A stretch of DNA of 64,000 nucleotides from a virus (Duplodnaviria; Heunggongvirae; Uroviricota; Caudoviricetes), in IMG/VR virus record IMGVR_UViG_2671180724_000008, one strand, 5' to 3'. This document shows positions 16,306 through 55,517 of this stretch, piece by piece; position 1 is the first letter of the stretch; the number at the start of each line of letters is the position of its first letter. The notes under the pieces were generated by a model. That model did not search any database. It was not told where the DNA came from and saw only the letters and a list, made by a program, of their open reading frames with translations. The position numbers were made by a program, and so were the translations under genes.

Positions 16306-16348
16306 CTAATACTAGAAAACAATTTGTTTAAAAAACAAAGGAAAGCAC

Positions 16349-17689
16349 ATGACCGAACTTTGCCATACAGGACGCGGGCTGTCCGAAGAGTTTGATGAAG
16401 ATTTCCAGAACAGACTGACGGCATATTTTTGTCGTGATCACGAGTTTCTTACTCGTGCGGGAGATCTGGTTGTGCCTAGCCAATTTGCCAATGCGGCCAA
16501 TGCCATATTGGTTAATATGGTTTCGGGCTATTACCGTATGTACAAGAGCGCGCCCTCTTCATCTGCAATTCTGGATATGCTTAAGCGTGCGAAACGCGAT
16601 AAGACTATCCGTGAGGAACTATTCGCCGATGTTGTTGCTGCGTTTAAGCGCATCCTTGCAGAAAAATTGTCCGATACCTCGTACATGGTTGACCAGGTAT
16701 CAACCTTCGCAAAAAGCGTAGCGTTTGATGATGCTCTGATTAAGGCTGCTGAACTGAAAGAGAAGGGCGACTTTCAGGGGGCGATGGCAATCATGGCCAA
16801 GGTTCAGCAGATTGGATCGAATGAAGCGACCGGAATCTATGACTACTACACCTCCGCAAGTGAGCGATTGAAAGCGCGTGAATATGAGGCTTCAGAGGAG
16901 TATGTACCAAACAGTATTACAACTGGACTCCCTCTTCTCGATAGGTTGCTGTACCAAAAAGGCTGGGCAAAGCGCGAAATGGTGCTCTTCATGGGGTTCG
17001 CTAAATCCGGTAAATCGACCGCAATGGGTGAGTTTTCCATAAACGCAACGCTTGCCGGCTACAATGTTCTGTATCTCTCGCTGGAGGTTCACACCAACAT
17101 TTTGTCCGACCGCTTTGATGCAAGATTGTCGGAGACGGAAATGTCCAAGCTGGTGGAACGGCGCGATGAAGTTCATCGTAAGTTGGCAGAGTTGGGAGCC
17201 ACGAAGGGGATTGGTAGTTTGTGGGTTGTTGAGCGTCCGTCAGGAAGTATGTCACCGGCCGATCTGGACCGTATGCTTAACAGTATGAAAGCCAATGGCA
17301 TGGTGCCTGACATGGTTGTTGTCGACTACGCAGATTTGATGCGTGCCAGTTATGACCTTCGTGATGATCGCGCCAATATTCGTAGTATCTACACCGATTT
17401 ACGTGCTCTTTATGACAAACATAACGTTGCTGGGATCACGGCATCGCAGACAAACCGTGAAGGTGGCGCGTCAGAAGTTGCCACAATGATGCACGCTGCC
17501 GACAACATCGAAAAAGTACGTATTGCTGACCTGGTAATAACGATCAACAAAACCGAAGAAGAAGAAGCGAAAGGAGAGGCTCGTCTCTACTTTGCTGGTT
17601 CGCGTAACCAGCAGGGAGGGATCAGCATTCGCGTTAAACAAAACCTCGAACAAATGCGCTTCATTGAGCGAATCTTAGACGTTACCTAA
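16349..17689 (+). CDS. DnaB-like replicative DNA helicase
   Basis: 446-aa protein with Walker A GFAKSGKST in a RecA-like C-terminal domain. Start preceded by aaaggaaagcacATG. Confidence 0.75.
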   Translation: MTELCHTGRGLSEEFDEDFQNRLTAYFCRDHEFLTRAGDLVVPSQFANAANAILVNMVSGYYRMYKSAPSSSAILDMLKRAKRDKTIREELFADVVAAFKRILAEKLSDTSYMVDQVSTFAKSVAFDDALIKAAELKEKGDFQGAMAIMAKVQQIGSNEATGIYDYYTSASERLKAREYEASEEYVPNSITTGLPLLDRLLYQKGWAKREMVLFMGFAKSGKSTAMGEFSINATLAGYNVLYLSLEVHTNILSDRFDARLSETEMSKLVERRDEVHRKLAELGATKGIGSLWVVERPSGSMSPADLDRMLNSMKANGMVPDMVVVDYADLMRASYDLRDDRANIRSIYTDLRALYDKHNVAGITASQTNREGGASEVATMMHAADNIEKVRIADLVITINKTEEEEAKGEARLYFAGSRNQQGGISIRVKQNLEQMRFIERILDVT

Positions 17690-17770
17690 AAAATAAGCGT
17701 GGAGAACACCTCCACGCTTGATTCATTGGTGAAACAACTTTTCTTTTGCCAAACCACAAAAGAAAAACAC

Positions 17771-18952
17771 ATGAGCCTTTATGTTATATCAACATTTAGG
17801 TTGGTCACAATATTGCCTGTTAAAAGTGGAATTATCGTGAGCGAGCTGAAAGAGCTAATTACCGAATTAGATTTTGAACAATGGTTGGACACTGAAGGTA
17901 TCGTTTATCGACGTGGAGGTGTGAGTGCTCGCGGTCGTGAAGTGAATATCAAGGAGTGTCCGGTATGCGGCAGCTCCAACTGGAAGGTATATTTCAATCT
18001 GACCAGTGGCGTCGGCAAATGCTTCGCTGGTGATCATCCCGAAGAGATTCAGTTCAATAAGCTGGTCTTCCTCAAGCACTACAGCGGTAAATCACGACGA
18101 CAGTTCGAGGAATATGTGCAGAACGCTCTTCTTTCCCAGGGGTGGGCACCAAAGAAAGAAGAGATAGTGCTTGCAAGCACAGTCGAGTTAGAGGGACCAC
18201 TTGCACTCCCTCGTCATTACGAGCTTCCTATAGATGGCCGTCTTCCAGACTATCTGGTTGAACGAAACATATCACCTGAAATGGCAAAGTATTTTGACCT
18301 ACGATACTGCGTCGAAGGCAAGCACGCTTATGTAGATCCGTATACAGATCAGGTAAAAGGACAGATATTCGATATGCGAGTACTGATACCGGTTTACGAT
18401 CTGGATGGGGTAATGAAGACATTTCAGGGACGAGACATTACCGGTACAGCAGACCGCCGCTACCTCTTTCCTATGCAGCTTCCAGCTTCAGGTAAGTTTC
18501 TCTACAACGGCCATAATGCGGTCGGCAAACAGACTGTAGTTGTCTGTGAGGGGGCGTTCGATGTTATGGGGGTTAAACGAGCTATTTTTGATGAAGAAAC
18601 ATTACGTGATTACGTGGAACCGATAGGAACGTTCGGGATGCATCTATCTGGTAACACCACTCAGGATGCAGAAGATCAGTTAGGCGCGTTCCTGACGCTC
18701 AAGGCGCGTGGGTTACGTAATGTGATCATGATGTGGGATAGTGAAAAGCAAGCTATACGCAACACTATGGCCGCAGCCAGGCGACTGACCAGTATCGGTC
18801 TTAATGTCAAAGTTGCGTGTTTGGGTGAGGAAGGACTCGACCCAGGCGGTGCAACGCCAGAACAAATTATCAAAGCCTATTATCGGGCAAAACCGTATAC
18901 CAAACAGTTGGAGTTGCAAAGCAAGGTTTTGGGCATTAAGGCTCTATCGTAA
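17771..18952 (+). CDS. DNA primase (zinc-ribbon plus TOPRIM)
   Basis: Zinc ribbon CPVCGSSNWKVY...GKCF and TOPRIM-like VVVCEGAFDVMG. Start chosen at the internal ATG preceded by ccacaaaagaaaaacacATG (conserved start context); the ORF track offers an earlier start at 17699. Confidence 0.65.
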   Translation: MSLYVISTFRLVTILPVKSGIIVSELKELITELDFEQWLDTEGIVYRRGGVSARGREVNIKECPVCGSSNWKVYFNLTSGVGKCFAGDHPEEIQFNKLVFLKHYSGKSRRQFEEYVQNALLSQGWAPKKEEIVLASTVELEGPLALPRHYELPIDGRLPDYLVERNISPEMAKYFDLRYCVEGKHAYVDPYTDQVKGQIFDMRVLIPVYDLDGVMKTFQGRDITGTADRRYLFPMQLPASGKFLYNGHNAVGKQTVVVCEGAFDVMGVKRAIFDEETLRDYVEPIGTFGMHLSGNTTQDAEDQLGAFLTLKARGLRNVIMMWDSEKQAIRNTMAAARRLTSIGLNVKVACLGEEGLDPGGATPEQIIKAYYRAKPYTKQLELQSKVLGIKALS

Positions 18953-19865: not shown

Positions 19866-20348
19866 ATGGCGGTAGTTGTGAAAGCTGATTTGTCAAAAAT
19901 CCCCTCTATTTCAGGAAATAATGGTTATTCACTTCGTTGTGAGGAAGTAAAGATAAACGGTGAGTCGGCATATTGCAGCTACTCCGTTTGCCAGCACACC
20001 ATTCTTGCCTTCAAAGAAAACCGTCTTCCTCGAACTTCATTCCAGTCGTGCGCAACCACTATCAAAGCAGGCAAATGCAAGGCGTTAAAAATGATGGTTG
20101 AAGAGATTCGTAAAGGAGAATCTCTGTATTTCGAAGATATGACCGCGCTCATTAAGGAGGTTGAAGAACGGAATAAACAAGCCAGAACTATAAAACGAAA
20201 ACGTGACAGTGTAACGATTAATAGCATGGTTAAGAAGAGCACCACATCACAAACAGCGATCACTGACGTGTATGCGGCGTTGCTTGAAGAAACAACAAAA
20301 GAAACACATGAGCAAATCGATCAACATATGGAGGCAAAACAACAATGA
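19866..20348 (+). CDS. hypothetical protein (Cys-rich N-terminus)
   Basis: 160-aa ORF; several Cys in the first 70 aa (possible metal-binding). Confidence 0.4.
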   Translation: MAVVVKADLSKIPSISGNNGYSLRCEEVKINGESAYCSYSVCQHTILAFKENRLPRTSFQSCATTIKAGKCKALKMMVEEIRKGESLYFEDMTALIKEVEERNKQARTIKRKRDSVTINSMVKKSTTSQTAITDVYAALLEETTKETHEQIDQHMEAKQQ

Positions 20349-23256: not shown

Positions 23257-23331
23257 GATGGTGTAGCTCAGCGGTAGAGCAGTTGGCTGTTAACCAACTG
23301 GTCGGTGGTTCGAATCCACCCACCATCGCCA
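23257..23331 (+). tRNA. tRNA-Asn (anticodon GTT)
   Basis: Canonical cloverleaf read by eye: acceptor gatggtg / caccatc, D-arm gctcagcggtagagc, anticodon loop ctGTTaa, T-arm ggtggttcgaatccacc, encoded CCA. Confidence 0.8.
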
Positions 23332-23336
23332 ATTTA

Positions 23337-23423
23337 GGGGAGTTAGTCCGTAGAGGTAGCGGTGTAGACTGTAAATCTACTGTCATTGCGACTCGGGTGG
23401 TTCGACTCCATCACTCCCCACCA
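23337..23423 (+). tRNA. tRNA-Tyr (anticodon GTA), type II with long variable arm
   Basis: Acceptor ggggagt / actcccc, anticodon stem-loop gtaga-ctGTAaa-tctac, long variable arm, T-loop ttcgact, encoded CCA. Confidence 0.7.
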
Positions 23424-23427
23424 AATT

Positions 23428-23503
23428 GCCGGTTTAGCTCAGTTGGTAGAGCGCCTGCCTTGTAAGCAGGATGTCAGCGGTTCGTGTCCGTTAACCGGCA
23501 CCA
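23428..23503 (+). tRNA. tRNA-Thr (anticodon TGT)
   Basis: Acceptor gccggtt / aaccggc, D-arm gctcagttggtagagc, anticodon loop ctTGTaa, T-loop ttcgtgt, encoded CCA. Confidence 0.75.
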
Positions 23504-24171: not shown

Positions 24172-24258
24172 GGAGAGTAGGGAGCATGGTGCTCAAGCGG
24201 TCTTGAAAACCGTCCCATTGTGCAAACGATGATGGTTCGATTCCATTACTCTCCGCCA
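24172..24258 (+). tRNA. tRNA-Ser-like (anticodon TGA), type II, non-canonical D-arm
   Basis: Acceptor ggagagt / actctcc, anticodon stem-loop gcggt-ctTGAaa-accgt, long variable arm, T-loop ttcgatt, encoded CCA. The D-arm is irregular, so function is uncertain. Confidence 0.5.
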
Positions 24259-24260
24259 GA

Positions 24261-24338
24261 CACAGCGTTGAGCGGTTTGGCCTTTTAATCAACTCGATTA
24301 AGACTCCGCTAACATAAACCAGACCGCTCAACGCTGTG
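24261..24338. repeat. long imperfect inverted repeat immediately after the tRNA cluster
   Basis: 20-bp arms (19/20 match): cacagcgttgagcggtttgg and ccagaccgctcaacgctgtg, separated by a 42-nt loop. Confidence 0.6.
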
Positions 24339-24400: not shown

Positions 24401-24413
24401 CAGCGCAAAATTC

Positions 24414-30542: not shown

Positions 30543-30637
30543 TTAAAACAGCCTTAACGATAAGTAACTACTTATGATAGTTAATGATATATTTATATAA
30601 GAAGTTGAACGCTCATTAGAGAACAAAGGAAAAACGC

Positions 30638-31873
30638 ATGACTACTACTGCACTGCAAAATGAAAAAAATCCTTCTGATTACCTTGTTTGCAAGTGGTGC
30701 GGAAAATCATTTCACTATTTTAAGTCCCATGTAGCCTATGGTAATTGCGAGGGCATTCCTGAGTCGGTAAAAGATGCCGATCCTGACACCGTACTGAAAA
30801 TGTACACAACGCAGTTTCCAGATGAACCAACGCTATCGAAAAAGGCACTTGATGCAATTCAAGCTAAACGTGCCGAGCAAAAAAGCGAAATGGCCAAATC
30901 TTCTGGTGTGACCAGTAGCCCAGGCTACATAGGCACAGTTGAGTACAAGACAGATCTGGTCGCAGCTCACGAACTGCTAGACGTAACGGTGGAAGAACTC
31001 GGAACAAAACGTGGGACGCCGCTCATGGTTAGCGTCAACGTCAATACGCCGTTTCCAGAGTTCGTTCCTGAAGTGAAGAAGGGCTACGTATATGGCGACT
31101 TCGAACTGATCAAAGACATTTTCATGATGCTTGAACTTGGCATACCAGGCTATTTGTGGGGACATGCAGGAACAGGCAAATCGTCATTGCCTACACAGCT
31201 ATGTGCTTTGCTCAATCGTCCGTTGATCCGTGCCCAACATACAGCATCAATGGAAGAAGCTCATGTTACGGGTCAAATTCTGGCGCGTGATGGCTCTACG
31301 TATTTCGAGCCAGGCTTGCTTGCGCTCGCAATGAAGCATGGCTGGGTTTACCTCGCGGATGAATACGACTTTGCGTTTCCACAAATTCTTGGCGTGTATC
31401 AGCCAGTGCTGGAAGGTGAAGCGTTGGTCATCAAAGAGGCGACACCAGAATGGCGTCGCATTACTCCGCATAAACGGTTTGCTTTTATTGGCACTGGCAA
31501 CACGAACGGATCTGGTGATGAAACCGGCTTGTACCAGGGTACAAACATCCAGAACGCCGCGAACTTTTCGCGTTTTGGCATCGTTTCGAATGTGAAATAC
31601 ATGAGCAAAGAGGCAGAGATCAACATGTTGATAAATGCCGGCATTGTGGATGAGTACGCTGAAAAGATGGTTAAGTTTGCCGGTATCGTTCGCGATGGTT
31701 ACGAAGAACACAATATCAGCCAACCGATTGGGCCTCGTGAGCTTTTGTTGTCGGCCAAGATTGGAATGATGCGAGGCGACTTTGTGACAGGTATTGAGCG
31801 TTCTTTCATTAACAAACTCCCTTCAGCTTCTGCACAAGCGGCTCGTGAAGTTGTTCAAAAAATATTTGGTTGA
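30638..31873 (+). CDS. CobS/MoxR-like AAA+ ATPase
   Basis: 411-aa ORF with Walker A GHAGTGKSS and an N-terminal Cys-rich segment CKWCG...C. Start preceded by aaaggaaaaacgcATG. Confidence 0.6.
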   Translation: MTTTALQNEKNPSDYLVCKWCGKSFHYFKSHVAYGNCEGIPESVKDADPDTVLKMYTTQFPDEPTLSKKALDAIQAKRAEQKSEMAKSSGVTSSPGYIGTVEYKTDLVAAHELLDVTVEELGTKRGTPLMVSVNVNTPFPEFVPEVKKGYVYGDFELIKDIFMMLELGIPGYLWGHAGTGKSSLPTQLCALLNRPLIRAQHTASMEEAHVTGQILARDGSTYFEPGLLALAMKHGWVYLADEYDFAFPQILGVYQPVLEGEALVIKEATPEWRRITPHKRFAFIGTGNTNGSGDETGLYQGTNIQNAANFSRFGIVSNVKYMSKEAEINMLINAGIVDEYAEKMVKFAGIVRDGYEEHNISQPIGPRELLLSAKIGMMRGDFVTGIERSFINKLPSASAQAAREVVQKIFG

Positions 31874-32079
31874 TCGTGCGTAAAGGATGTTTCGGCTCTC
31901 TTATCGCTGCTTCTGAAACTGGTAAGGCTTGTCTGGTGTGTCCAGACAAGCCCGATTGTCACCAATCAGCAAAAGAAGTTGCGATTTCGATGCACGGGAA
32001 GTTCGTAGGCTTCCCAAATGACAAAATCAAAAAAACCAGAAAGGTAAAAACACATGAAGGCACTGATGGTTCGAACTGA
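31870..32079 (+). CDS. small Cys-rich hypothetical protein
   Basis: 69-aa ORF, ATGA-coupled to the upstream gene and overlapping the polymerase start. Contains CLVCPDKPDC. May be spurious. Confidence 0.25.
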   Translation: MIVRKGCFGSLIAASETGKACLVCPDKPDCHQSAKEVAISMHGKFVGFPNDKIKKTRKVKTHEGTDGSN

Positions 32080-35604: not shown

Positions 35605-35697
35605 CCCTTATCCCCTCATATCCCCTATCCTCGAACTCCTTGCCTTATCATCACAATGATATAATCAATATAAAATGATAAGTAAAAAGGAAAGCAC

Positions 35698-36129
35698 ATG
35701 ATCACCGATATTTACGAGAAAATAATGTCTGATCTCGAGTTTGACCGAGACAATCTGGAGGAAGTCTGGCGTAGACAACCCCGCCTTTTAATGGAGTATG
35801 GCTCAAAACTCGCTCATGCAGAAAGAAGTGTCGCAGAGGCAAAACTTAACCTTGAAGCTGTTGAAGCAAAGCTATACGACACAGAGCGTAAGAACTTGAG
35901 TATGAACGGCATTAAGTTCAACGAGTCTGTACTGGACGCTAAGGTTAAAACAAACCCACAGTATCTGTCTAAACGGCAGAAGTTGGATGAAGCACGGCAC
36001 ATCGCAGACATATACAAACATGCTGTCGCCGCCTTTTCGCATCGCCGAGACATGATCGTTCAGGCGTCGAAGATGGCCATCGTTGAGTTAGATCGATTAG
36101 GCTCTGAACGCTTTATTACTCCCCGTTGA
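35698..36129 (+). CDS. hypothetical protein
   Basis: 143-aa ORF with the conserved start context aaaaggaaagcacATG, between the polymerase and SSB genes. Confidence 0.45.
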   Translation: MITDIYEKIMSDLEFDRDNLEEVWRRQPRLLMEYGSKLAHAERSVAEAKLNLEAVEAKLYDTERKNLSMNGIKFNESVLDAKVKTNPQYLSKRQKLDEARHIADIYKHAVAAFSHRRDMIVQASKMAIVELDRLGSERFITPR

Positions 36130-36246
36130 TTTTTGATAGATAATAAGTAAGTACTGATCTATCATTTAACAGCTCGAAAGAGCCACGAATGAACGAAAGC
36201 CCAACGCGCATAGCGCCATCGGCCAAATCACAACAAGGAGAAACAC

Positions 36247-37269
36247 ATGTCTAAGACATTACTTGATTTGCTTAACAAAACTCGTGAAGACATTGCCGCC
36301 AAACGTGGCAAAAACACTGATTTGACCCGCTTAAAAGACGGCATCAACTATATCCGCATCTTCCCTAATAAAGACGACCCGAATGGTAAGTTCTTCCAGA
36401 CTTTTGGTATGCACTACATTAAGTATCAGAACGAGGAAGGTAAAGAAGCAACCAATGCTTATATTTGTGAGCAACATACTCACGGTCGCGCTTGTCAGCT
36501 ATGCGAAATGGTGATGGAAGGTCGCGCTCGTCACAAGGGTAACAAAGCAATGGAAGAGCGCATCGGTCAAATGCGTGCAACCCCTCGCTACCTGGTAAAC
36601 GGCATTCTTTCAACTCGTGAGGATTTCTCCGATGCAGAGAAATGTCAGTTAATCGAACTGCCTTCCACTGTGTTCGATGATATCTGCAAAGCAATCACCG
36701 AAGACATCGCTGACGATATCGGCAATCCATTAAGCAAAGAGGAAGGTTACGCATTTCAAATTAAGCGCACAGGCTCTGGTCGCGATACAGAATATGACGT
36801 TTCACCAAAACGTAAAGTCTTCAAAGGTGATATCGAAGATAAATTCTGGAACAACCAACATGACCTGATTGCTTATGTGAATCAGGCCGATGAAACTCGC
36901 CTTCTTGCGACAGTTCGCACTATGGGTCGTCTGATTGGCATCGCTGCACCAACTGCCACTGCATCGGCACCAGCAATTTCCTCAACAGCGAAAACATCGG
37001 CCTCTGCACTGCCTGGATTTGGCTCGATCACTGGTCATACGGAAGGAGCGACGGCTGTAGCAACCGCCCACACTCCAGCTTCTGAACCAACCAGTCTGGT
37101 TGATGAAGAAGTCCTGCGAGCAATGGAATCTGAATTTAAATCAGAAACAAGTTCTGCTGCCACATCAGCCAAAGAGTCTGAAGCAGACGCAACGACATCT
37201 GTAGCAGCCGCATCTGCGGCGGAAGATGAAGGTATTGATGACCTGCTGAAAGAACTGGAGTCTCTGTAA
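36247..37269 (+). CDS. single-stranded DNA-binding protein (T4 gp32-like) with acidic C-terminal tail
   Basis: 340-aa ORF. N-terminal region aligns by eye with gp32 (INYIRIFPNKDDPNGKFF versus gp32 AVIRFLPSKNDEQAPF) and carries a Cys/His cluster CEQHTHGRACQLC. Acidic C-terminus EDEGIDDLLKELESL. Confidence 0.6.
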   Translation: MSKTLLDLLNKTREDIAAKRGKNTDLTRLKDGINYIRIFPNKDDPNGKFFQTFGMHYIKYQNEEGKEATNAYICEQHTHGRACQLCEMVMEGRARHKGNKAMEERIGQMRATPRYLVNGILSTREDFSDAEKCQLIELPSTVFDDICKAITEDIADDIGNPLSKEEGYAFQIKRTGSGRDTEYDVSPKRKVFKGDIEDKFWNNQHDLIAYVNQADETRLLATVRTMGRLIGIAAPTATASAPAISSTAKTSASALPGFGSITGHTEGATAVATAHTPASEPTSLVDEEVLRAMESEFKSETSSAATSAKESEADATTSVAAASAAEDEGIDDLLKELESL

Positions 37270-39645: not shown

Positions 39646-39708
39646 ATCTCTTGAAAATATATAAGTACTTACTTATCATTTTCACATAACAACCACATAG
39701 GAAAACAC

Positions 39709-39909
39709 ATGATCAAAATCTATCTATTGGCAGTAGCCACAGGCCTTTCAGTGGCTCTCATCTACGGATTACTGGTTCCGTCGCTGATTTCTGCAAAGAG
39801 TGATTTGGCCGTCATGCTTGGAGTTCTCGTTGGTTTTGGTACTCCTGTAATCGGTCTTATTGCTGGTCGTAAGTTTATTAACTCATTAATCAAAGCAAAG
39901 GGGAAATAA
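39709..39909 (+). CDS. small two-helix membrane protein
   Basis: 66-aa ORF with two hydrophobic helices. Start context cataggaaaacacATG. Immediately upstream of the SPFH gene. Confidence 0.4.
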   Translation: MIKIYLLAVATGLSVALIYGLLVPSLISAKSDLAVMLGVLVGFGTPVIGLIAGRKFINSLIKAKGK

Positions 39910-43348: not shown

Positions 43349-43403
43349 TCGCCTATTCATAACTAACAAAATAAGTAAACACTAACCACAAAAGGAAAAA
43401 CAC

Positions 43404-43679
43404 ATGAGAGTTTTAGTTCGAATCGTTACCAGCACTGTCTATGACGTGTTTCCGCTTTTTATGGTCAAAGCCGATGGTCTTAACGACGAAGAAACTGACG
43501 CGCTGATCCAGCGTATTCTCGTTGAATATACAGGTCATGACGCTGATTCAGTGATGGTTGATGATGATGGTGTTTGTTGGCATAACGGCAACTGTTGGTA
43601 CGTAGAAGAGACTCAACAAATCAGTGATGAAGATGCCGCACATCTTGAGCGTATTTTAAGCATCAGCACTTTTGAGTGA
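43404..43679 (+). CDS. hypothetical protein
   Basis: 91-aa acidic ORF with the conserved start context aaaaggaaaaacacATG. Confidence 0.4.
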   Translation: MRVLVRIVTSTVYDVFPLFMVKADGLNDEETDALIQRILVEYTGHDADSVMVDDDGVCWHNGNCWYVEETQQISDEDAAHLERILSISTFE

Positions 43680-45022: not shown

Positions 45023-46116
45023 CAAAGCAGTTTGAGACTATTGGAAAGGATCTCAATCATCTTGATATTTTCAGGCGTCAAATTCTGCGAAAGTTCGGTT
45101 ATCTTGTTGATAATGTTCTGTTTAGCATCAATTTCCCCGGCTTTCTCATCTGGTTTTTTGGGTTCGATGTCTTCAGGTTTTGGCGGTGCGACTTTAAGTT
45201 TTGGATTACGGCTGTGAATCTGGATATAGATCGACCGCCCTCGCTTAATCTCGCTGTATTCGAGATAGCCCAAATCTTGGAGAGCTTTTAAGCCGTTACG
45301 TATAGTCTGATTCTGCGAGCTGACATTCCTGCTACTCAAATTGAGTCGCGCACGCAATCGAGCAAGCGATACCGGCGCAGGCTTGGTTGGAAGACTTTCG
45401 ATGAAGGTGTACAGAGCCTGTGCTGTTTCTTTGCGTGGTAGCTTATTGATAACCTTTAACTGCAAAAGAACCTTATGGTCAAAGCGATATAGTTCGGCCA
45501 GCTTCGGTTCTGCATAGAACACCACCGTATCTTTCTGCTCGTTGTAGTCCACGCTATTGATGAGGTGCACCATCAGAAGCGAGATCTTGTTAGAGCCGTC
45601 GACGTTCTTTTCTTCATACGTTCTCTGGAAAGACAGAGTTGTACGCATGATCTTCAAAAGACTGTTTGTAAGCCGGTCGCGGAGTGTTTTGCGGATCTGT
45701 GACGATGGATAGCCACAAAACTTCGCAAATTTCGTGATGCTTAACTCGACACGACCGTTAGGTTCGCCGTATTCTGCCAGCGAACGCACAACGCCCACCC
45801 ACGTTTTGAAATCATGATCCATGTCGAGACGAGGACCGGTTATCTTGATGTCGGAATAGCCTTCAGAACGGGCTACTTCGAGCTGAACAAGCTCCTTTGA
45901 AGCATCGATTTCATTTGGCTTGTTACGCTTGCTGTATTTTGTCCCCTTGAGCGTGGGCACGAACAACCCCAGCCGCATCAACGCAATTGGTTGGACTGTA
46001 TTGTTGCTATTAGGGACAAGTTCCCCTGTGTACAATTCAAGGGAACCTTCTTCAAAGTTGTCGAGATTATCTTCTACTTCTTTGTTATTTTTACCTTTTT
46101 TATTTTTTGTGGACAT
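45022..46116 (-). CDS. repA: RepA-like iteron-binding plasmid replication initiator
   Basis: Minus-strand ORF flanked on both sides by iterons. Start set at MSTKNKKGKNNK (ATG at 46116-46114) so that the coding region does not overlap the upstream iterons; the track start is 46236. Confidence 0.7.
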   Translation of the reverse strand: MSTKNKKGKNNKEVEDNLDNFEEGSLELYTGELVPNSNNTVQPIALMRLGLFVPTLKGTKYSKRNKPNEIDASKELVQLEVARSEGYSDIKITGPRLDMDHDFKTWVGVVRSLAEYGEPNGRVELSITKFAKFCGYPSSQIRKTLRDRLTNSLLKIMRTTLSFQRTYEEKNVDGSNKISLLMVHLINSVDYNEQKDTVVFYAEPKLAELYRFDHKVLLQLKVINKLPRKETAQALYTFIESLPTKPAPVSLARLRARLNLSSRNVSSQNQTIRNGLKALQDLGYLEYSEIKRGRSIYIQIHSRNPKLKVAPPKPEDIEPKKPDEKAGEIDAKQNIINKITELSQNLTPENIKMIEILSNSLKLL

Positions 46117-46134
46117 GTGGACACCTTTGTCATT

Positions 46135-46237
46135 CAACCGCTGACAGCATACTTGATTTGCCGCTGGCAGCATACAAAAAACAGTTGGCAGCATACGGCG
46201 AACCGTTGACAGACTATCAATTACCGCTGACAGCATA
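46135..46237. repeat. iteron array upstream of repA (5 copies, origin/incC-like)
   Basis: Five copies of the same CCGCTGACAGCATAC-type repeat, two of them degenerate, in the repA promoter region. Confidence 0.8.
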
Positions 46238-47082: not shown

Positions 47083-47336
47083 CCCTCCAGATCGTATATT
47101 GGCGTAGATAGAATCTACGCCCCCTCAAAATAGCTCTCATAGCGTTCTACAGTGATCCTGTCTTATTTTTAGTCATACAGGCAAGCAAAGTTGCGCCACA
47201 ACAAATAGGTATATACTTACTTATAAATTTTGTATATTAAGACGCTCGTTTCATTCCTAACATACCGTTATGCATAGTTGTTTACCTTCTCATTGCTCTT
47301 AAAATTTGTATCAAAATAACCACAAAGGAAAAACAC

Positions 47337-48422
47337 ATGACTTTGCCATACGGCGTCATTTCTGACTGCCACTACCACAAATGGGATGCGTTCTCCACGA
47401 CGAACGCTGAGGGGCTTAACTCCAGACTTGAAATACAGTTGGAAGCAACGAAAGAAGCAGCCATCGCCATGAAGAAGGCCGGTTGTAAGTACATGTTGGT
47501 TGCCGGTGATACATTTCACGTCCGAGGAACTGTGTCCCCTTCTGTTTTGCATTACGTAACTGAAACGTACAAGTGGATTATCAACGAGCTTGATCTGACA
47601 GTAGTAATGCTGGCCGGTAATCACGATCTTGAAACCAACGATTCAGTATATAGCGCCAACGCAGCAGCATCGCTGAGTTCTATCGGCGTGGTAATCGTAT
47701 GTGGCAAGCGCCCACACTCAATAAAAATTGGTGATGTGACTGTCCACCTGATTAGCTGGCGTAACAATCATGCGGAGCTTATCAGCGATCTGAAAGCATT
47801 ACGTAAGAGCGTAGAAGGTGATAATCATGACGTTGTTATCCATACATCCATTAACAAAGCCATTCCAACAATGCCTGACGTCGGTATCGATGCGCAGGAG
47901 TTAAAGGATATCGGCTTTCGTCTCGTGCTTAGTGGGCATTACCACAACCACAAAGAGGTCATTCCTGGTGTTATCAGTGTCGGTGCGCTGACCCATCAAA
48001 ATTGGGGAGATGTTGGATCTCTGGCTGGTTACATGATCGTAAACCCGGACGGCAGTTTCAGTCACTACGAAACCAGTGCGCCTAAATTCATTAACCTGGA
48101 AGATTATGTTGCCGATGACCAAATTCGCGGCAACTACGTGCGTTTCCGCGCCGTAATTGAGAACGATGAAGAAGGCATTAAGTACCAGAATATCCTCAAA
48201 ACAATGGGCGCAAAAGGTGTCGTGTGCAACTTCATCCGTAAGTCATCAATGATGGAAGGGACAGCAAGCACAACGGAAACCAGCAAAATCGATAGCTTGG
48301 GAGAGTCGGTATCTGCTTATTGCAAGATTGTCCACGATACTGACGGCGGATTTGATCTGAGCAAGTTGGATATTTTGTGTCAGGAAATCCTCACCGAAGC
48401 GGAGAGTTCGGAGGCTGTGTGA
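47337..48422 (+). CDS. SbcD/Mre11-like nuclease (calcineurin-like phosphoesterase)
   Basis: 361-aa ORF with phosphoesterase motifs DCHYH, GDTFH and GNHD. Start context acaaaggaaaaacacATG. Confidence 0.65.
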   Translation: MTLPYGVISDCHYHKWDAFSTTNAEGLNSRLEIQLEATKEAAIAMKKAGCKYMLVAGDTFHVRGTVSPSVLHYVTETYKWIINELDLTVVMLAGNHDLETNDSVYSANAAASLSSIGVVIVCGKRPHSIKIGDVTVHLISWRNNHAELISDLKALRKSVEGDNHDVVIHTSINKAIPTMPDVGIDAQELKDIGFRLVLSGHYHNHKEVIPGVISVGALTHQNWGDVGSLAGYMIVNPDGSFSHYETSAPKFINLEDYVADDQIRGNYVRFRAVIENDEEGIKYQNILKTMGAKGVVCNFIRKSSMMEGTASTTETSKIDSLGESVSAYCKIVHDTDGGFDLSKLDILCQEILTEAESSEAV

Positions 48423-50568: not shown

Positions 50569-51301
50569 ATTAAGCCGCTCGCAGTTTTTGCAGGTATTTG
50601 CAGTGATGCAGTCGATAAAACTGATCAATGGGCATACTTCCAATAGTGCGGCTCCACGTATTCTGTGGGGCAGCAATAATATTGACAAAGCACAATTCGC
50701 CCCGTTGCTTGGTCTAATATCCGAGACACCATTGATGCAAAGTTTGGAATCACTACCGTCTGGATGTATTGCGCCGATCTTGATTAATCCTTTTGTTGAG
50801 GGGGGATATCTTCCCAACGTCGGACCTGGGTTTATCGCAACCCATGAAACTGAAGATCTTAACATTAATAGCGAAGGGTTCTTTGGGGCAATGGATGCGC
50901 ATCTCTGTATGGCTTTCACGAACCTTATTCGACTTGCCAATAAGCGGGCGGATAGTTTGGCATCGCCAGGTGATGCTTTTACTGGTTTCCTTATCCAAAG
51001 GAGGGATAAAAAGTACAGTGCGGACAAACTACAGTTTGTTGGTAAGTATGGAGAAATGGTAGAAATCGAACTTCAGCTCCCTCATGTTTTAGCAAACGAT
51101 AGTGCAGACAGTCGGAGGCTGTTGGGCATCATGCGTCATTTCATAGCAAGTGGCGTTAAACATGCCGTAGATAAACGTGTCACGCAGGAAAATGAGTATT
51201 CAGACTTTGCAAGCTATCCCCAACCAACGTTGCAAACGGCAATAGTAGCCAATTCGTTGGAGGCGAGATTATTGGAAAACCCTATATGGGGAACATGGTA
51301 A
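50558..51301 (+). CDS. hypothetical protein
   Basis: 247-aa ORF overlapping the SbcC-like stop. Confidence 0.4.
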   Translation: MSFKLSRSQFLQVFAVMQSIKLINGHTSNSAAPRILWGSNNIDKAQFAPLLGLISETPLMQSLESLPSGCIAPILINPFVEGGYLPNVGPGFIATHETEDLNINSEGFFGAMDAHLCMAFTNLIRLANKRADSLASPGDAFTGFLIQRRDKKYSADKLQFVGKYGEMVEIELQLPHVLANDSADSRRLLGIMRHFIASGVKHAVDKRVTQENEYSDFASYPQPTLQTAIVANSLEARLLENPIWGTW

Positions 51302-51310
51302 GGAGACTAT

Positions 51311-51880
51311 ATGAGTAAAAAAATCAGCGTAGTTGGTGTTGATCCCTCAATGAGCAACTTTGGGCTTGCTGTGGGCACTTTAGACCTTGAAACGGACGAA
51401 CTTGAGATTCACGGCCTTACTCTTGTTGAGACTAAAGCGGGGAGTAACAAAAAGACAGTTCGTGTGAACAGTGACGATCTGCGCCGTGCCAGTGAAATAT
51501 GGCGTGTTGCGAAGCCAATCATTGATAAGGCAAATATGGTTTTTTGTGAGCTACCGGTTGGGAGCCAAAACTCTCGTTCGCAGACGTCTTACGGTATTTG
51601 TATCGGTGTACTTGCGTGTGTGGATAAGCCATTGATCCAGGTCACTCCAAACGAAATTAAGCATTTTGTCGGCAATAAACTTACTACATCGAAAGAAGAG
51701 ATTATCCAGTGGGCTACGAAAAAACACCCTAAAGCACCGTGGCTGCGTCGTAAGCAATCTGGACAGGATGTTCTCGTGAACAAAAACGAACATTTGGCTG
51801 ATGCGGTGGCTGCCATCCATACCGGTATGCAAACGGATCAGTTCCGCCAGGTGCGCGATGTTCTTAAGTCTCTCATTTGA
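51311..51880 (+). CDS. RuvC-like Holliday junction resolvase (putative)
   Basis: 189-aa ORF. N-terminal ISVVGVDPS resembles the RuvC/YqgF catalytic Asp motif. RBS aaggag upstream. Confidence 0.5.
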   Translation: MSKKISVVGVDPSMSNFGLAVGTLDLETDELEIHGLTLVETKAGSNKKTVRVNSDDLRRASEIWRVAKPIIDKANMVFCELPVGSQNSRSQTSYGICIGVLACVDKPLIQVTPNEIKHFVGNKLTTSKEEIIQWATKKHPKAPWLRRKQSGQDVLVNKNEHLADAVAAIHTGMQTDQFRQVRDVLKSLI

Positions 51881-51914
51881 TTTCATTGATAGGTAAGTGC
51901 TTATCTATTAACAT

Positions 51915-51947
51915 GGGCCACTATATTTAGTGGCCCTCTTTATTTGG
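51915..51947 (+). terminator. rho-independent terminator
   Basis: gggccact-atattt-agtggccc hairpin followed by tctttatttgg. Confidence 0.65.
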
Positions 51948-51953
51948 TGATAC

Positions 51954-54269
51954 ATGATAAGCATCGTAAAACGTAACGGCCAAACAGAGCCGTTATCCGA
52001 AGAAAAATACAACCGCGTCGTAATGTATGGCGTAGAAGGCATTCGTGGTGTAAGCGCATCCGCTGTAGCAATGGGAGCTGCGGCCAGCATTTTTGATGGG
52101 ATTACCACCAGCCAGTTGCATGAGGCTTTGGTTAAATCTGCCGCTGATTTGATCTCACCAGATGCACCAAATTACTCGCAGGTGGCTGCCCGCCTGAACA
52201 TTTTTAAAATCCGCAAAGATGCCTTCGGTCGTTACGACTATCCGAACTTCTACCAACACATTGTCAAGAACGTTAACAAGGGCGTCTATGACAAGGATTT
52301 GCTGACACATTATTCATTTGAAGAGATCGAAGAACTCGGCAATTACATTAAGCCTAAACGTGACGATCTTTTTGGCTATGCAGCTACGGTGCAATTGCAA
52401 AGCAAATATCTCGTTCAAAACCGTGTTACTGGTGAGATTCATGAGGGGCCGCAACATATCTATATGCTGGTAGGCATGTGTCTGTTCCAGAATTGGGAAG
52501 ACGACTGCGCTGGCAAAACACGTATGGAGATGGTCAAAGGTTTCTATGACGTTACAAGTACGTTCAAACTGTCTCTGCCCACACCAATCATGGCCGGCGT
52601 CCGTACTCCAACCCGTCAGTTCTCCAGTTGTGTGCTGATTGAGTCTGGCGATAGTCTGAAAGGTATTAGTGCAGCTTCAGCCGCAATTATCGACTACGTT
52701 TCACGTCGTGCTGGAATTGGTATTGGTTTTGGCCGTATCCGTGCGCTGGGCAGCGAGATCCGCAATGGTGAAGCCACCCATACCGGAGTTATTCCATTCC
52801 TGAAGCATTTCCAGACGGCTGTTAAATCTTGTTCGCAAGGTGGTGTTCGTGGTGGCGCAGCAACAGCGTTTTACCCGATCTGGCATCTTGAAGTTGAAAG
52901 TCTGCTGGTGGTGAAAAATAACCGTGGTATTGATGAAAACCGCGTTCGCCATCTTGATTACGGCGTCATGAGTAACCGTCTAATGTACCGTCGACTCGTC
53001 AGAAGCGAGAACATCACTCTGTTCAGCCCGCATGATGTGCCTGATATGTACGAAGCCTTCTTCACAGACCAGGATCTGTTTGAAAAGCTGTACCATAAAT
53101 ACGAAGCCGATGATTCAATTCGCAAGAAGTCAGTACCTGCCATTGAGCTGTTCTCATCTCTGATGCAGGAACGAGCGTCCACGGGCCGAATTTATATTGC
53201 GAACGTCGATCATATTAATGAGCATGGCGCTTTCATTCCTGCTCTTGCACCTGTCCGCCAGTCAAACCTGTGCATGGAGATCACTCTACCCACTCGTCCA
53301 CTGGCATTTACCGACGACCCGAACGGTGAGATCGCGCTATGCACTTTATCCGCTTTTAACCTCGGAGCCATCCGTTCACTGGAGTCTCTTAAAGAGGTGG
53401 CGTTCTATGCCGTTGCTGCACTGGATTCGTTACTGGATTATCAAGACTATCCGATGGAGGCAGCCGAAGTGCCTGCCAAAGCTCGTCGTAGCCTGGGAAT
53501 CGGTGTAACCAACTTTGCTTATTACCTGGCAAAGAATGGCGTTCGTTATTCTGATACCGCTGGCAATAAACTGGTGCATGAAACGTTCGAAGCTATCCAG
53601 TATTACCTTCTTGATGCCAGCTGCCGACTTGCTGAAGCAAAAGGTGAGTGTGACTGGTTTGAGCAGACCAAGTACGCAATTGGTCAGTTGCCGATCGACC
53701 ATTACCGTTCTTCATTAGACGAAAGTGACGAAACCAACTTTGAGTTAAAGATGCCGTGGGAAGAACTGCGTGAACGTATTGCGAAATACGGCCTTCGCAA
53801 CTCCACACTGACGGCACAAATGCCATGTGAGACTTCCAGCCAGATCACTAATTCCACCAACGGCATCGAACCGCCTCGTGGCCCGGTGTCGGTGAAATCT
53901 TCTAAGGACGGCATCGTTAAGATGGTCGTGCCTGAGTTTGAAAAACTGAAGGAACAGTATGAATACCTGTGGGATATGCCGGACAACCGCGGCTATCTGA
54001 CAAAGGTGGCGATCATCCAGAAGTTCTTCGACCAGGCTATTTCAGCCAATACCAACTATGACCCTTCTCGCTTTGAAGGCGATAAAGTCCCAATGATGAC
54101 GCTACTGTCAGATTTGCTTCTCGCCTACAAGATGGGAGTTAAAACGCTTTACTACCACAACACCAGAGATGGGGCAGGAAAGCGTGATGACGACGAACCG
54201 CAGAATCCACTGACGCAAGCTGTAGCCGTCGAGCCAGAAGATGAGTGCGACGGAGCCTGCAAAATCTGA
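51954..54269 (+). CDS. nrdA: ribonucleoside-diphosphate reductase alpha subunit (class Ia NrdA)
   Basis: 771-aa ORF. Near-collinear, high-identity match (by eye) to enterobacterial NrdA along its length, including N-terminal ATP-cone, catalytic-site segments and C-terminal Cys pair. Confidence 0.9.
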   Translation: MISIVKRNGQTEPLSEEKYNRVVMYGVEGIRGVSASAVAMGAAASIFDGITTSQLHEALVKSAADLISPDAPNYSQVAARLNIFKIRKDAFGRYDYPNFYQHIVKNVNKGVYDKDLLTHYSFEEIEELGNYIKPKRDDLFGYAATVQLQSKYLVQNRVTGEIHEGPQHIYMLVGMCLFQNWEDDCAGKTRMEMVKGFYDVTSTFKLSLPTPIMAGVRTPTRQFSSCVLIESGDSLKGISAASAAIIDYVSRRAGIGIGFGRIRALGSEIRNGEATHTGVIPFLKHFQTAVKSCSQGGVRGGAATAFYPIWHLEVESLLVVKNNRGIDENRVRHLDYGVMSNRLMYRRLVRSENITLFSPHDVPDMYEAFFTDQDLFEKLYHKYEADDSIRKKSVPAIELFSSLMQERASTGRIYIANVDHINEHGAFIPALAPVRQSNLCMEITLPTRPLAFTDDPNGEIALCTLSAFNLGAIRSLESLKEVAFYAVAALDSLLDYQDYPMEAAEVPAKARRSLGIGVTNFAYYLAKNGVRYSDTAGNKLVHETFEAIQYYLLDASCRLAEAKGECDWFEQTKYAIGQLPIDHYRSSLDESDETNFELKMPWEELRERIAKYGLRNSTLTAQMPCETSSQITNSTNGIEPPRGPVSVKSSKDGIVKMVVPEFEKLKEQYEYLWDMPDNRGYLTKVAIIQKFFDQAISANTNYDPSRFEGDKVPMMTLLSDLLLAYKMGVKTLYYHNTRDGAGKRDDDEPQNPLTQAVAVEPEDECDGACKI

Positions 54270-54374
54270 CATATGGTGGGGGGTATCCCCACCTTCTCTT
54301 TGATTTGTAAGCCTTGTTTAAACAAATAAGATAACAACTTGTTTAAACACATCAAAAAGCAAAAGGAAAAACAC

Positions 54375-55517
54375 ATGTCATATTCAACGTTCCGTTTGGG
54401 TGCTAATGATGCAACCAAAGAGCCTATGTTCCTCGGACAATCTGTCAACGTGGCACGTTACGATCAGCAAAAATACCGTGATTTTGAAAAGTTGATTGAA
54501 CGTCAATTGTCTTTCTTCTGGCGGCCGGAAGAAGTTGATATTTCGAGCGATCGCATCGACTTCAATACGAAGCTGCGGGACCACGAACGCCACATTTTCC
54601 TGAGTAATCTCCGTTATCAAACGTTGCTCGATTCAGTTCAGGGACGTAGCCCAAATGCAACGCTGCTGCCGCTTATCTCTATTCCTGAACTGGAAACGTG
54701 GGTTGAAACGTGGTCTTTCTCTGAGACTATCCATAGCCGTAGCTACACCCACATTATTCGTGGCATGGTGGACGATCCGAGCATTGTTTTTGACGGTATT
54801 GTTACGGATGAAGAAATCATCAACCGAGCGATCAGTATCTCTGCTGAATATGACAGGCTTTATGGGATGACATGCGAGCGCCAGTCGTTAGGTGAGAAGG
54901 AGTTTGAACGTCTGTACGTAAATGAATATGGCTGGGAGCCATACCCTTTGCACCGTCAGCTTTTCCGCACGTTGGTGTCCATTAATGCGCTTGAGGCGAT
55001 CCGTTTCTATGTAAGTTTTGCATGTACGTTTGCCTTTGGCGAACGGAAGTTGCTTGAGGGTAACACCAAAATTATGCGCTTTATTGCCCGTGATGAAGCT
55101 CTGCATTGCGAAGGAACTGAACGCATGATCCGCTTCATGCGTACCGGTCGAGAAGGTTTATTGTGGAAAGAGATTGCTGCTGATGAAGAAAACGTCATTT
55201 ACGACACCATGAAATCAGTCGCCGAACAAGAAATGAACTGGGCAGACTATCTCTTCAAAGACGGTTCGATGATTGGTTTAAACGCGGATATTCTCAAAAC
55301 CTATGTAAAATACCGCACCAATCTGGCTATGAATCGTCTTGGCCTGAAGGCTTTATTTCCAGAAGTTACCACTGATCCGCTGGTCTGGATGAACAAGTGG
55401 TTGTTAACCGACACACTGCAAATTGCACCACAAGAGGCAGAGCAAAGCACATATCTGGTAGGTCAGATCGATTCTACCGTGGATAAGGCTTCTCTAAGCC
55501 AGTTTGCAGACCTGTAA
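54375..55517 (+). CDS. nrdB: ribonucleoside-diphosphate reductase beta subunit (class Ia NrdB)
   Basis: Start at the ATG preceded by aaaaggaaaaacacATG. Iron-ligand and tyrosyl-radical region [18 protein letters not shown] and ARDEALH conserved as in E. coli NrdB. Confidence 0.9.

Follow-up and report, generated by a model that had tools for sequence, protein, structure and literature searches.

Why do about ten DNA-replication and nucleotide-metabolism genes in one viral genome begin with a near-identical ribosome-binding region of 15-20 bases, and what might read it? The stretch analysed here (the window: 64,000 nucleotides of IMG/VR record IMGVR_UViG_2671180724_000008) is an Escherichia coli phage-plasmid of the SSU5/pHCM2/pMT1 type. 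Such elements form a very large family that has clinically relevant members, with several hundred sequenced plasmids in Klebsiella, E. coli and Enterobacter, together with Salmonella pHCM2 and Yersinia pestis pMT1. A sequence-only reading of the window had described a 16-nt translation-start context at 11 or more genes, and had suggested co-regulation, for example by an RNA-binding repressor such as RegA of phage T4.

To our knowledge, T4 RegA is essentially the only known case of a multi-gene translational operator in phages. A shared operator here, if true, would be a second and independent case, and would show how a complete lytic replication machinery stays quiet in plasmid life. Even without a dedicated reader the motif would be unusual: an exact AUG-adjacent spacer under lineage-specific selection and repeatedly re-created at new genes.

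Ten start regions in the window

The start context is real. Ten listed starts share an A/C-rich leader followed by AAGGA-A(2-5)-RCAC-ATG, on the coding strand only and at gene starts only, and an A/C-rich tract (AACCACAAAGG...) continues the consensus on its upstream side. A Shine-Dalgarno sequence (AAGGA or AGGA) lies at about -12 to -8 in nine of the ten (AAGAA at 17771), so that the motif has the purine-rich, 16S-complementary stretch 5-10 nt upstream of the start that marks an ordinary ribosome-binding site; the spacer, in contrast to that of an ordinary site, is constrained beyond length and A/U richness. Spacing falls into classes: GGAAA-R-CAC at 16349, 35698 and 39709; GGAAAAACAC at 30638, 43404, 47337 and 54375; GGAGAAACAC at 36247; and GGTAAAAACAC at 32054. 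Two sites deviate, 17771 with GA for GG and 30638 with CGC for CAC. The 16-nt consensus stands exactly at 16337 and 35686 and nowhere else; as typed (AAAGGAAARCACATG) it is 15 nt long. Ten of the 11 starts originally listed are members, and the eleventh (62250; 62230..62252, + strand, CCACTTTAAGGAAAACTAAC-ATG), already described as a looser version, lacks CAC and is not counted.

The members, all on the + strand, were examined with start codons compared against the Cyrano annotation. The DnaB-like helicase site (16329..16351, TAAAAAACAAAGGAAAGCAC-ATG) matches the consensus exactly, and its G at -4 is retained in all relatives, including the distant Klebsiella relative pKSB1_9A_3. The site at the primase leader or N-terminus (17751..17773, AAACCACAAAAGAAAAACAC-ATG) precedes an ATG that is conserved together with the 22-codon peptide it begins, MSLY.I....L..ILP.K; the window has this stretch in frame with the primase, and about 20 relatives have it as an ORF of its own, whose end lies 2 nt upstream of the primase ATG. 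The CobS-like ATPase (30618..30640, AGAGAACAAAGGAAAAACGC-ATG) has AAGGAAAAACAC or AAGGAAAGCAC in relatives, and the DNA polymerase III alpha-like gene (32034..32056, AACCAGAAAGGTAAAAACAC-ATG) has a spacer conservation of 0.98 across 21 haplotypes. The UvsY-like gene (35678..35700, ATAAGTAAAAAGGAAAGCAC-ATG) is the other exact match, its start at 35698 being backed by a conserved N-terminal peptide. At the gp32-like SSB gene (36227..36249, ATCACAACAAGGAGAAACAC-ATG), CAC and TAC alternate across relatives, and the motif is predicted to lie in an unpaired stretch 3' of two small hairpins.

The remaining members are a small membrane protein gene (39689..39711, ACAACCACATAGGAAAACAC-ATG), preceded by a terminator-like hairpin (39621-39641) and then a promoter-like TTGAAA-17-TATCAT (39651-39679); a gene for a 91-aa hypothetical protein (43384..43406, AACCACAAAAGGAAAAACAC-ATG), where the ACAC adjoining ATG is constant and the Shine-Dalgarno part variable among relatives; the SbcD-like nuclease gene (47317..47339, TAACCACAAAGGAAAAACAC-ATG), which retains CAC-ATG in relatives though the spacer length shifts by 1 nt; and nrdB (54355..54377, AAAAGCAAAAGGAAAAACAC-ATG), where AAACAC is fully conserved below variable upstream sequence and the pKSB1_9A_3 ortholog reads AAAGGAAAACACATG. 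An upstream ORF ending at an ATGA overlap was rejected by eye at sbcD, where a stop just upstream closes the frame, and a Pfam search at E <= 0.01 did not bear out the ASCH domain annotated for the gene that precedes sbcD.

Four further genes have CAC-ATG with a Shine-Dalgarno type different from that of the motif: a 127-aa ORF (start 12138; 12118..12140, +; AAGGTG type), a 246-aa hypothetical gene upstream of the helicase (15565; 15545..15567, +; AGGTG type), a hypothetical gene running off the window (63802; 63782..63804, +; GGAG type) and, in its own orientation, the candidate start of repA (46116; 46114..46136, - strand, TGAATGACAAAGGTGTCCAC-ATG).

The motif is far from a chance assembly. 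Allowing up to two mismatches, the consensus has seven matches in the window, all on the + strand and each ending in a start codon; 0.42 were expected, and none of 100 shuffles reached seven. CAC occupies -3 to -1 at 13 of 67 curated window starts, against a background of 1.2% (the triplet's share at other upstream offsets; binomial P = 1.4e-12), and the second-commonest triplet there occurs four times. Information content at -7 to -1 exceeds that at the Shine-Dalgarno positions, a descriptive figure only, from ten sites selected for the motif. Motif start regions are 79% A+C and 8% T (51% and 25% in other genes) and are predicted to be more accessible than the starts of other genes. A sigma-70 promoter or terminator consensus was rejected as the motif's source: promoter-like sites are not enriched at motif genes, and only some of these genes have a clear upstream promoter or terminator.

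Lineage, conservation and gene class

The motif is specific to the SSU5/pHCM2/pMT1-type lineage. With one mechanical start-caller applied to all genomes, CAC precedes ATG at 9 of 50 starts in the window (18%) and 17 of 83 in pKSB1_9A_3 (20%), against 0/50 in E. coli (ribosomal-protein operons included), 0/30 in P1 and 1/36 in T4 (lineage versus these host-matched controls, Fisher test 5e-7). An Acinetobacter phage-plasmid gave 2/39, a contrast confounded by host, and unrelated viral loci 3/618. Cyrano carries 13 motif copies on the + strand and none on the -, and pKSB1_9A_3 carries 21 and none, and every copy leads into an ORF of 70 aa or more; in both genomes CAC adjoins ATG in every copy, and that ATG opens an ORF. 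Raw occurrence of the 16-mer in IMG/VR is uninformative, since many unrelated contigs use it to start genes: among the matches listed, 80 of 89 exact copies in unrelated viral contigs begin an ORF that is 60 aa or longer or that runs off the fetched stretch.

Conservation extends, as had been claimed, beyond the Shine-Dalgarno sequence. Spacer positions -6 to -1 score 0.89 in motif genes and 0.73 in 18 control genes (P = 0.0016, the haplotypes being phylogenetically non-independent), so it is not the Shine-Dalgarno hexamer alone that is kept; across relatives, the Shine-Dalgarno region, the upstream region and third codon positions are no different in conservation between motif and control genes. 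Turnover accompanies this constraint. The motif has been gained and lost at orthologous genes with its consensus unchanged: in pKSB1_9A_3, but not in the window, it stands at recA, ruvC and the h78 gene, and GGAAAGCACATG is found at five different genes across lineages. The uvsY motif is confined to the E. coli sub-lineage, start regions in other relatives being unrelated, and is therefore a recent gain. The same 12-15-mer persists, and is re-created, in lineages so far apart that their SSB proteins share only about 50% identity. The alignments thus show a spacer under purifying selection and a motif gained repeatedly at new genes.

Comings and goings of this kind could also mark a non-functional legacy or a recombination junction, boundary sequences kept by module exchange or by copying of start regions with no role in expression. 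The window/Cyrano alignment does break exactly at the uvsY ATG, where Cyrano has a hicAB insertion. However, uvsY is the single mosaic boundary to fall on the motif; identity between copies spans 12-22 nt only, with unrelated upstream and flanking sequence; the spacer is constrained more than neighbouring intergenic DNA; and a junction needs neither a fixed ATG register nor strict strand bias. We consider this account distinctly improbable. The short repeat, the unrelated upstream sequence and the lone coincidence with a breakpoint also set the motif apart from the promoter-stem-loop cassettes (PeSLs) of T4-type phages.

A DNA-level protein site, such as an asymmetric repressor site or a promoter-proximal element, would account for many copies in a single orientation relative to transcription, in the short intergenic spaces of lytic genes, and the stoperators of cluster A mycobacteriophages resemble the motif in all of these respects. 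Stoperators have no start-codon register, whereas every motif copy has CAC adjoining the start codon and ATG within the repeat, a register needless for DNA. The repA copy is oriented with its gene on the other strand, and the same intergenic regions hold better operator candidates, the palindromes TAAGTA-NN-TACTTA and AACAANTTGTT. In pKSB1_9A_3, copies also head internal cistrons or fall within the 3' end of the preceding gene; the internal-cistron copies tell against a DNA site, and given both placements the motif is not a feature of transcript 5' ends. Among the explanations weighed here we give a DNA site the least credence.

Gene class is the other regularity. Motif genes, from about 10 in the window to 21 in the distant relative, serve replication, recombination and nucleotide metabolism. 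In Cyrano and pKSB1_9A_3 together, 0 of 52 structural and lysis genes carry the motif, against 34 of 183 other genes (P = 9e-5), and the major capsid gene is without it.

Translational operator or ribosome-binding site?

Being lineage-specific and kept by selection, the motif looks like a shared translation-control site. Our preferred reading, to which we assign a probability of about 0.4, is that it is a translational operator or enhancer shared by the lytic replication genes, acting at the mRNA level and typical of SSU5/pHCM2/pMT1-type phage-plasmids; its mechanism we infer. Each copy is made up of four segments: a leader rich in A/C, poor in U and G and predicted to be unpaired; AAGGA; a short A run; and a near-invariant (A/G)CAC set against AUG. 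Because host ribosomes do not require RCAC, this element most probably serves as the feature by which a lineage-wide trans-acting factor recognizes its targets. Such a factor would cover the region from the Shine-Dalgarno sequence to AUG and adjust all of these genes in concert, probably as a repressor.

The logic would be that of T4 RegA, though neither the protein nor the sequence would be related. As in the RegA regulon, many early replication and nucleotide-metabolism genes share an AUG-flanking sequence (10 in the window, 13 in Cyrano, 21 in pKSB1_9A_3), control would be exerted at translation initiation, and the gene sets overlap (gp32-like SSB, uvsY, gp46/47-like sbcCD, nrdAB, primase and helicase). 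Within T4 itself, AATGAGGAAATT-ATG-ATTA is common to rIIA and gene 44. RegA sites are AU-rich and loosely defined, whereas the motif is A/C-rich, sharply defined and wholly 5' of AUG.

The chief competitor, which we regard as plausible though doubtful, is that the motif is a high-efficiency ribosome-binding site typical of the lineage, with no dedicated reader: one good spacer inherited and copied, whose A/C-only leader cannot fold or make false starts and whose AAGGA at 7-9 nt docks the 30S subunit well. The high A+C content, T depletion and predicted accessibility suit it, as does the kinship with A/C-rich enhancers that likewise place an A/C-only, low-folding leader next to the start; the CAA repeats of TMV omega, CA repeats and the lacZ leader (CACACAGGAAACAGCU-AUG) are CAA- or AC-rich, and such leaders are known to enhance translation in E. 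coli. Those enhancers act through composition, whereas the motif keeps and re-creates one exact spacer that host genes do not use, and does so across lineages whose SSB proteins have diverged this far. CAC is strongly favoured among A/C-only triplets at -3 to -1 (13, against 4 AAC, 3 ACA and 3 AAA); CAC-ATG is rare or absent in host genes, P1 and T4; and the most highly expressed late genes, the major capsid gene among them, lack the motif. Lineage and gene-class specificity fit co-regulation better than a generic ribosome optimum, and in that respect the earlier suggestion holds up.

The distance from GG to CAC varies from 3 to 6 nt, and the variants TAC, CGC and AAC are tolerated among relatives, a latitude unlike that of a rigid operator and in keeping with an ordinary ribosome-binding site. 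The 16-mer's opening of genes in unrelated viral contigs likewise characterizes it as a competent ordinary site, and weighs against the operator reading.

Candidate readers

The search for a T4 RegA homologue came back empty: RegA run by tblastn on the window and on the complete Cyrano genome gave a best E of 1.5, and a Pfam scan of 40 hypothetical proteins gave no match to the RegA family (PF01818). Several RNA-level partners were also set aside. Additional 16S rRNA pairing, outside the Shine-Dalgarno sequence, reaches -10.7 kcal/mol at best, weaker than shuffled motifs (mean -13.2), and the element's tRNAs (Asn, Tyr, Thr and Ser), none of which reads CAC, offer no link to the motif.

A trans-acting small RNA like C4 of P1, or an endoribonuclease (T4 RegB-like, or an ACA-cutting toxin of the MazF type that would split the Shine-Dalgarno sequence from AUG), would suit the gene-class specificity as a shut-off mechanism; ACA occurs twice around AUG, and these elements carry toxin-antitoxin genes. 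Against a small RNA, a duplex scan over both strands of the whole Cyrano genome brought nothing above shuffle level except the strands opposite the motif sites (the remaining duplexes, at about -18 to -20 kcal/mol, being at that level), and an Rfam scan of the window returned tRNAs and no small-RNA family; a C4-type antisense RNA was rejected on these two results. No nuclease is linked to the motif. We rate this class of mechanism as slightly less probable than a recombination junction.

For the operator reading, the phage-encoded RNA-binding protein that the sequence-only reading had recommended looking for has a candidate, encoded outside the window and sharing the motif's distribution. This is a core protein of the lineage, matched in Cyrano to PF03614 (FljA) at E = 1e-80 and predicted by a structure model to have a tandem Hfq-like fold of two domains. 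It occurs in 12 of 12 SSU5-like phage records and in 831 plasmids; the other phage groups gave no full-length match, and two short fragment records gave weak partial matches. In Enterobacterales plasmids, 341 of Klebsiella and 62 of Yersinia among them, FljA-like proteins number about 1:1 with gp32-like SSB proteins. The shared distribution of motif and FljA-like protein lies within one clade and amounts effectively to n = 1. The gene lies outside the 64-kb window, and a search of the probable source contig (92 kb, which may be incomplete) did not find it.

In full, the proposal would be a RegA-like regulon built from unrelated parts, in which the FljA-family protein binds AAGGAAA(A/G)CAC-AUG at 10-21 genes, keeping them silent in the plasmid state or shutting them off late in infection. 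In this detailed form we think it unlikely. If true, it would assign a role to the conserved FljA/Hfq-like protein of elements in flagella-free hosts, explain why a "flagellin repressor" is kept in elements of non-motile Klebsiella and Y. pestis, and supply a compact, portable pair of start region and regulator.

The precedent is Salmonella flagellar phase variation, in which FljA reportedly binds fliC mRNA and blocks its translation. The known target there is one host mRNA, whereas the protein here is kept also in elements whose hosts, Klebsiella and Y. pestis, are non-motile; we know of no report of a multi-gene phage regulon for the FljA family, and found no mention in the papers searched of the motif or of the function of the SSU5 FljA-like gene. 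A resemblance of the motif to the fliC leader was sought and rejected: in E. coli K-12 that leader (...CAAUAUAGGAUAACGAAUC-AUG) has neither RCAC-AUG nor an A/C tract. The FljA-like protein of pKSB1_9A_3 is divergent (37% identity, without the family-invariant N-terminal EVWPRDY) in a genome with the same motif, and the FljA-like gene's own start region is motif-free; these observations, with the fliC leader, speak against the preferred reading.

Hfq itself offers a partial parallel. CAC-AUG is not needed by Hfq, and host Hfq would not explain the lineage specificity. Modelling gives the candidate protein two Hfq-like domains, and AAC-AAC-AAA-GGA-AAA, read in one frame, consists mostly of the A-R-N triplets of (A-R-N)n binding and overlaps the Shine-Dalgarno sequence.

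Start codons and the shared context

The window is part of an E. coli SSU5/pHCM2-type phage-plasmid, since over 30-40 kb it shares 97% identity with Escherichia phage CMS-2020a, 95% with Cyrano (pLF82) and 80% with Salmonella phage SSU5. Gene starts were carried over from the whole annotated Cyrano genome and, together with window-specific ORFs and after correction of two starts, gave a curated set of 67. Two doubtful starts, 35698 (uvsY) and 17771 (primase leader), are judged real because their N-terminal peptides are conserved: that of uvsY is common to the window and Cyrano despite unrelated upstream sequence, and ATG 17771 is kept in relatives along with the next 22 codons (MSLY.I....L..ILP.K). 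This stretch is in frame with primase in the window; in about 20 relatives it is a separate upstream ORF whose TGA stop lies 2 nt before the primase ATG, an arrangement that suggests translational coupling. The conserved peptide (17771-17839) separates the motif ATG from the GTG at which the Cyrano annotation begins primase.

The sequence-only reading had described a 16-nt context shared by at least 11 genes. As typed, its consensus has 15 nt and is exact only at 16337 and 35686, but with up to two mismatches it yields seven matches where chance predicts 0.42, and every one is on the plus strand and ends in a start codon. Ten genes are true members (helicase, primase leader, cobS, DNA polymerase, uvsY, ssb, a small membrane protein, a hypothetical gene, sbcD and nrdB), while the site at 62250 is a loose relative only. 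The members have in common an A/C-rich leader followed by AAGGA, a run of two to five A, then (A/G)CAC and ATG; the GG-to-CAC distance differs between spacing classes, GA replaces GG in the primase-leader copy, and cobS has a CGC variant. By an unbiased measure, the triplet before the start codon is CAC at 13 of the 67 starts, the next commonest triplet occurring at 4; at other upstream offsets the share of CAC among triplets is 1.2% (P = 1.4e-12). Four of these 13 starts use another type of Shine-Dalgarno sequence (AGGTG or GGAG), among them minus-strand repA, whose CAC-ATG lies in the gene's own orientation. Information content per position is low across all 67 starts, with a maximum of 0.4 bit at Shine-Dalgarno positions; in the ten members the spacer holds more information than the Shine-Dalgarno positions, a descriptive result only, as the motif itself was the basis for picking these ten. 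The observation stands, and more strongly than a first look could reveal; no description of the motif was found in the literature searched.

A motif-like sequence, AAAAGAAACACATG, also lies within the 3' end of the gene preceding ligase (20294-20310). Its ATG opens an ORF of only 19 codons, out of frame with ligase, and may be a vestige, since at the corresponding position the distant Klebsiella phage-plasmid pKSB1_9A_3 carries the motif at a genuine gene of 156 aa.

Conservation among relatives was scored from 240 related IMG/VR loci gathered around ssb, sbcD and the helicase gene, in which orthologous starts were located, collapsed to distinct haplotypes and aligned, the score being the fraction of haplotypes matching the window base at the ten motif genes and at 18 controls with intergenic upstream regions. 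The spacer (-6 to -1) scored 0.89 in motif genes versus 0.73 in controls (Mann-Whitney P = 0.0016, with haplotypes that are not phylogenetically independent), whereas the Shine-Dalgarno region did not differ (0.83 versus 0.80), and the two groups were alike at -22 to -14, at -60 to -23 and at third codon positions. Conservation thus extends past the Shine-Dalgarno hexamer into the spacer, as had been proposed. Relatives vary from CAC to TAC at ssb and to CGC at cobS, and spacer length shifts by one base at sbcD and at the 91-aa hypothetical gene 43404; the most stable part is the RCAC adjoining AUG.

Lineage and gene-class specificity

One mechanical start-caller (minimum ORF length 80 aa; start at the first ATG that has a Shine-Dalgarno-like tetramer between -16 and -5) was applied to all sequence sets. 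CAC preceded ATG at 9/50 starts in the window, 8/86 in Cyrano and 17/83 in pKSB1_9A_3, and at 3/618 in 89 unrelated viral loci, 1/36 in T4 (1-50 kb), 0/30 in P1 (1-50 kb), 0/50 in an E. coli K-12 region with ribosomal-protein operons and 2/39 in an Acinetobacter phage-plasmid with a syntenic, homologous replication module. The difference between the lineage (26/133) and host-matched controls (1/116; Fisher P = 5e-7) shows that CAC-ATG is not generally favoured by E. coli ribosomes. The exact 16-mer AAAGGAAAAACACATG is present singly in many unrelated viral contigs, and in 80 of the 89 matches listed it begins an ORF that reaches 60 aa or leaves the fetched stretch. It is an ordinary, functional ribosome-binding site, and what sets the present case apart is the number of copies.

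Although its SSB is only about 50% identical to that of the window, pKSB1_9A_3 matches AAAGGAAARCACATG with no more than two mismatches at 21 sites, all on the coding strand and none on the other; all 21 open an ORF of at least 70 aa, and several are an identical 15-mer. The motif gene sets overlap only in part: recA, ruvC and the ortholog of the 269-aa gene 60478 bear the motif in pKSB1_9A_3 and not in the window, and uvsY bears it only in the E. coli sub-lineage. Since one consensus persists across saturating divergence and is re-created at new genes, the comparison points to selection for the exact motif sequence. Copies of GGAAAGCACATG stand at five different genes, depending on the lineage, and their flanks are unrelated; a recombination junction is a less likely explanation. 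Internal cistrons of pKSB1_9A_3, with 16-nt gaps, likewise have the motif, and one copy lies within the 3'-terminal part of the gene before it, so the motif is not a feature of transcript 5' ends. Its fixed AUG register, its strand, these internal-cistron copies and the repA orientation place its action at the mRNA or translation level, and a DNA-level site is less likely. The polymerase region of pKSB1_9A_3 is read as two ORFs (790 and 386 aa; 65370 and 67813, stretch L415), each with a motif copy, where the plasmid gene table lists no gene.

Across Cyrano and pKSB1_9A_3 the motif is found in 0 of 52 structural and lysis genes versus 34 of 183 others (P = 9e-5), the major capsid gene being without it; the motif is under lineage-specific and gene-class-specific selection. 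Motif genes belong to the lytic programme, as they are not among the genes expressed above prophage background in Cyrano lysogens (PMC9928086).

Candidate readers of the motif

The most likely reading, to which we give a probability of roughly 0.4, is a common translational operator or enhancer read by a factor of the lineage, a logic like that of T4 RegA with unrelated components. A RegA-type repressor had been suggested from sequence, and no T4 RegA homologue was found; the search for a phage-encoded RNA-binding protein did yield a candidate outside the window, CYRAN_114 (Cyrano 100780-101301, minus strand; 780-1301 of Cyrano stretch L003), with its own TATAAT promoter and terminator. This 173-aa protein, annotated 'transcriptional regulator', is a full-length match to PF03614, the FljA 'repressor of phase-1 flagellin' family (E = 1e-80), with a weak Hfq match in the Pfam scan and a predicted tandem Hfq-like fold. 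FljA of Salmonella is an inhibitor of fliC translation that binds the fliC mRNA; the leader of E. coli fliC is unlike the motif.

An FljA-like gene is present in 12 of 12 SSU5-like phage records, while other phage groups gave no full-length match and only weak partial matches in two short fragment records. Among SSU5/pHCM2/pMT1-type phage-plasmids it belongs to the core genes (831 plasmids), and in PLSDB Enterobacterales it accompanies the gp32-like SSB almost one to one (Klebsiella 341 versus 347, Escherichia 229 versus 224, Enterobacter 92 versus 92, Yersinia 62 versus 63). Repression of host flagellin is an unlikely reason for this core status, because Klebsiella pneumoniae and Y. pestis are non-motile. 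Acinetobacter phage-plasmids are without the motif and have no detectable FljA-like gene, a contrast confounded by host, and the association of gene and motif is a clade-level co-distribution. The FljA-like protein of pKSB1_9A_3, a genome with the same motif, is only 37% identical and is missing the family's invariant N-terminal stretch, and a search of the contig from which the window probably comes (92 kb, and perhaps incomplete) detected no FljA-like gene.

The main rival, possible if doubtful, is a ribosome-binding site that is typical of the lineage, free of structure and highly efficient, with no dedicated reader. From -25 to -1, motif genes are 79% A+C versus 51% in others, and 8% T versus 25%; their start regions fold more weakly, with a predicted unpaired probability of 0.64 versus 0.49. 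The motif has no 16S rRNA pairing beyond the Shine-Dalgarno sequence and no Rfam family; a small-RNA or nuclease target is less likely, and no antisense partner was found in the Cyrano genome. At ssb the motif lies in a predicted unpaired stretch 3' of two small hairpins, recalling the structured-then-open leader of T4 gene 32. The ssb leader (36130-36246) is very highly conserved, with hairpins GCUC-GAAA-GAGC and GCGC-AUA-GCGC and a folding z-score of -2.1; the leader of gene 46438 shares CATCGGCCAA..ATCACA with it.

Insertions and other elements

A low-GC island (24001-26000; 36% versus about 46%) adjoins a cluster of four tRNA genes (23257-23503 and 24172-24258; Asn(GTT), Tyr(GTA), Thr(TGT) and Ser(TGA), three of them scored by Rfam) and holds a 432-aa minus-strand ORF (24454-25752) without a Cyrano counterpart, probably an inserted accessory or defence gene. 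Upstream of uvsY (Cyrano 50264-52214 versus window 35573-35699), Cyrano carries an inserted hicAB toxin-antitoxin pair and a cspA-thermoregulator-like element (Rfam RF01766, 188 bits), and homology with the window restarts exactly at the uvsY start codon. A three-gene insert at 40833-42902 is specific to the window relative to Cyrano, its first protein having a DUF1281_C (Api92-like ferredoxin-like) domain.

When up to two mismatches are allowed, the palindrome TAAGTA-NN-TACTTA is matched 26 times (1.9 expected), with 14-nt sites at 5662, 10450, 15534, 18968, 22490, 30561, 36144, 39662, 43372, 43703, 47206, 51890, 56606, 61441 and 63654. With few exceptions these lie between genes, upstream of the starts of late as well as early operons, and the copy at 39662 fills the spacer of a TTGAAA-17-TATCAT promoter-like site; this palindrome probably serves the lytic transcription units as their chief operator or promoter element. 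A similar TAAGCGCTTA-type element is present in the Acinetobacter relative. There is a second palindrome, AACAANTTGTT, in four copies (0.17 expected), at 13388, 16318, 40811 and 54333, with a second imperfect copy near 54306; the four closely precede parA, helicase, a window-specific gene and nrdB, and the helicase copy is kept in all relatives.
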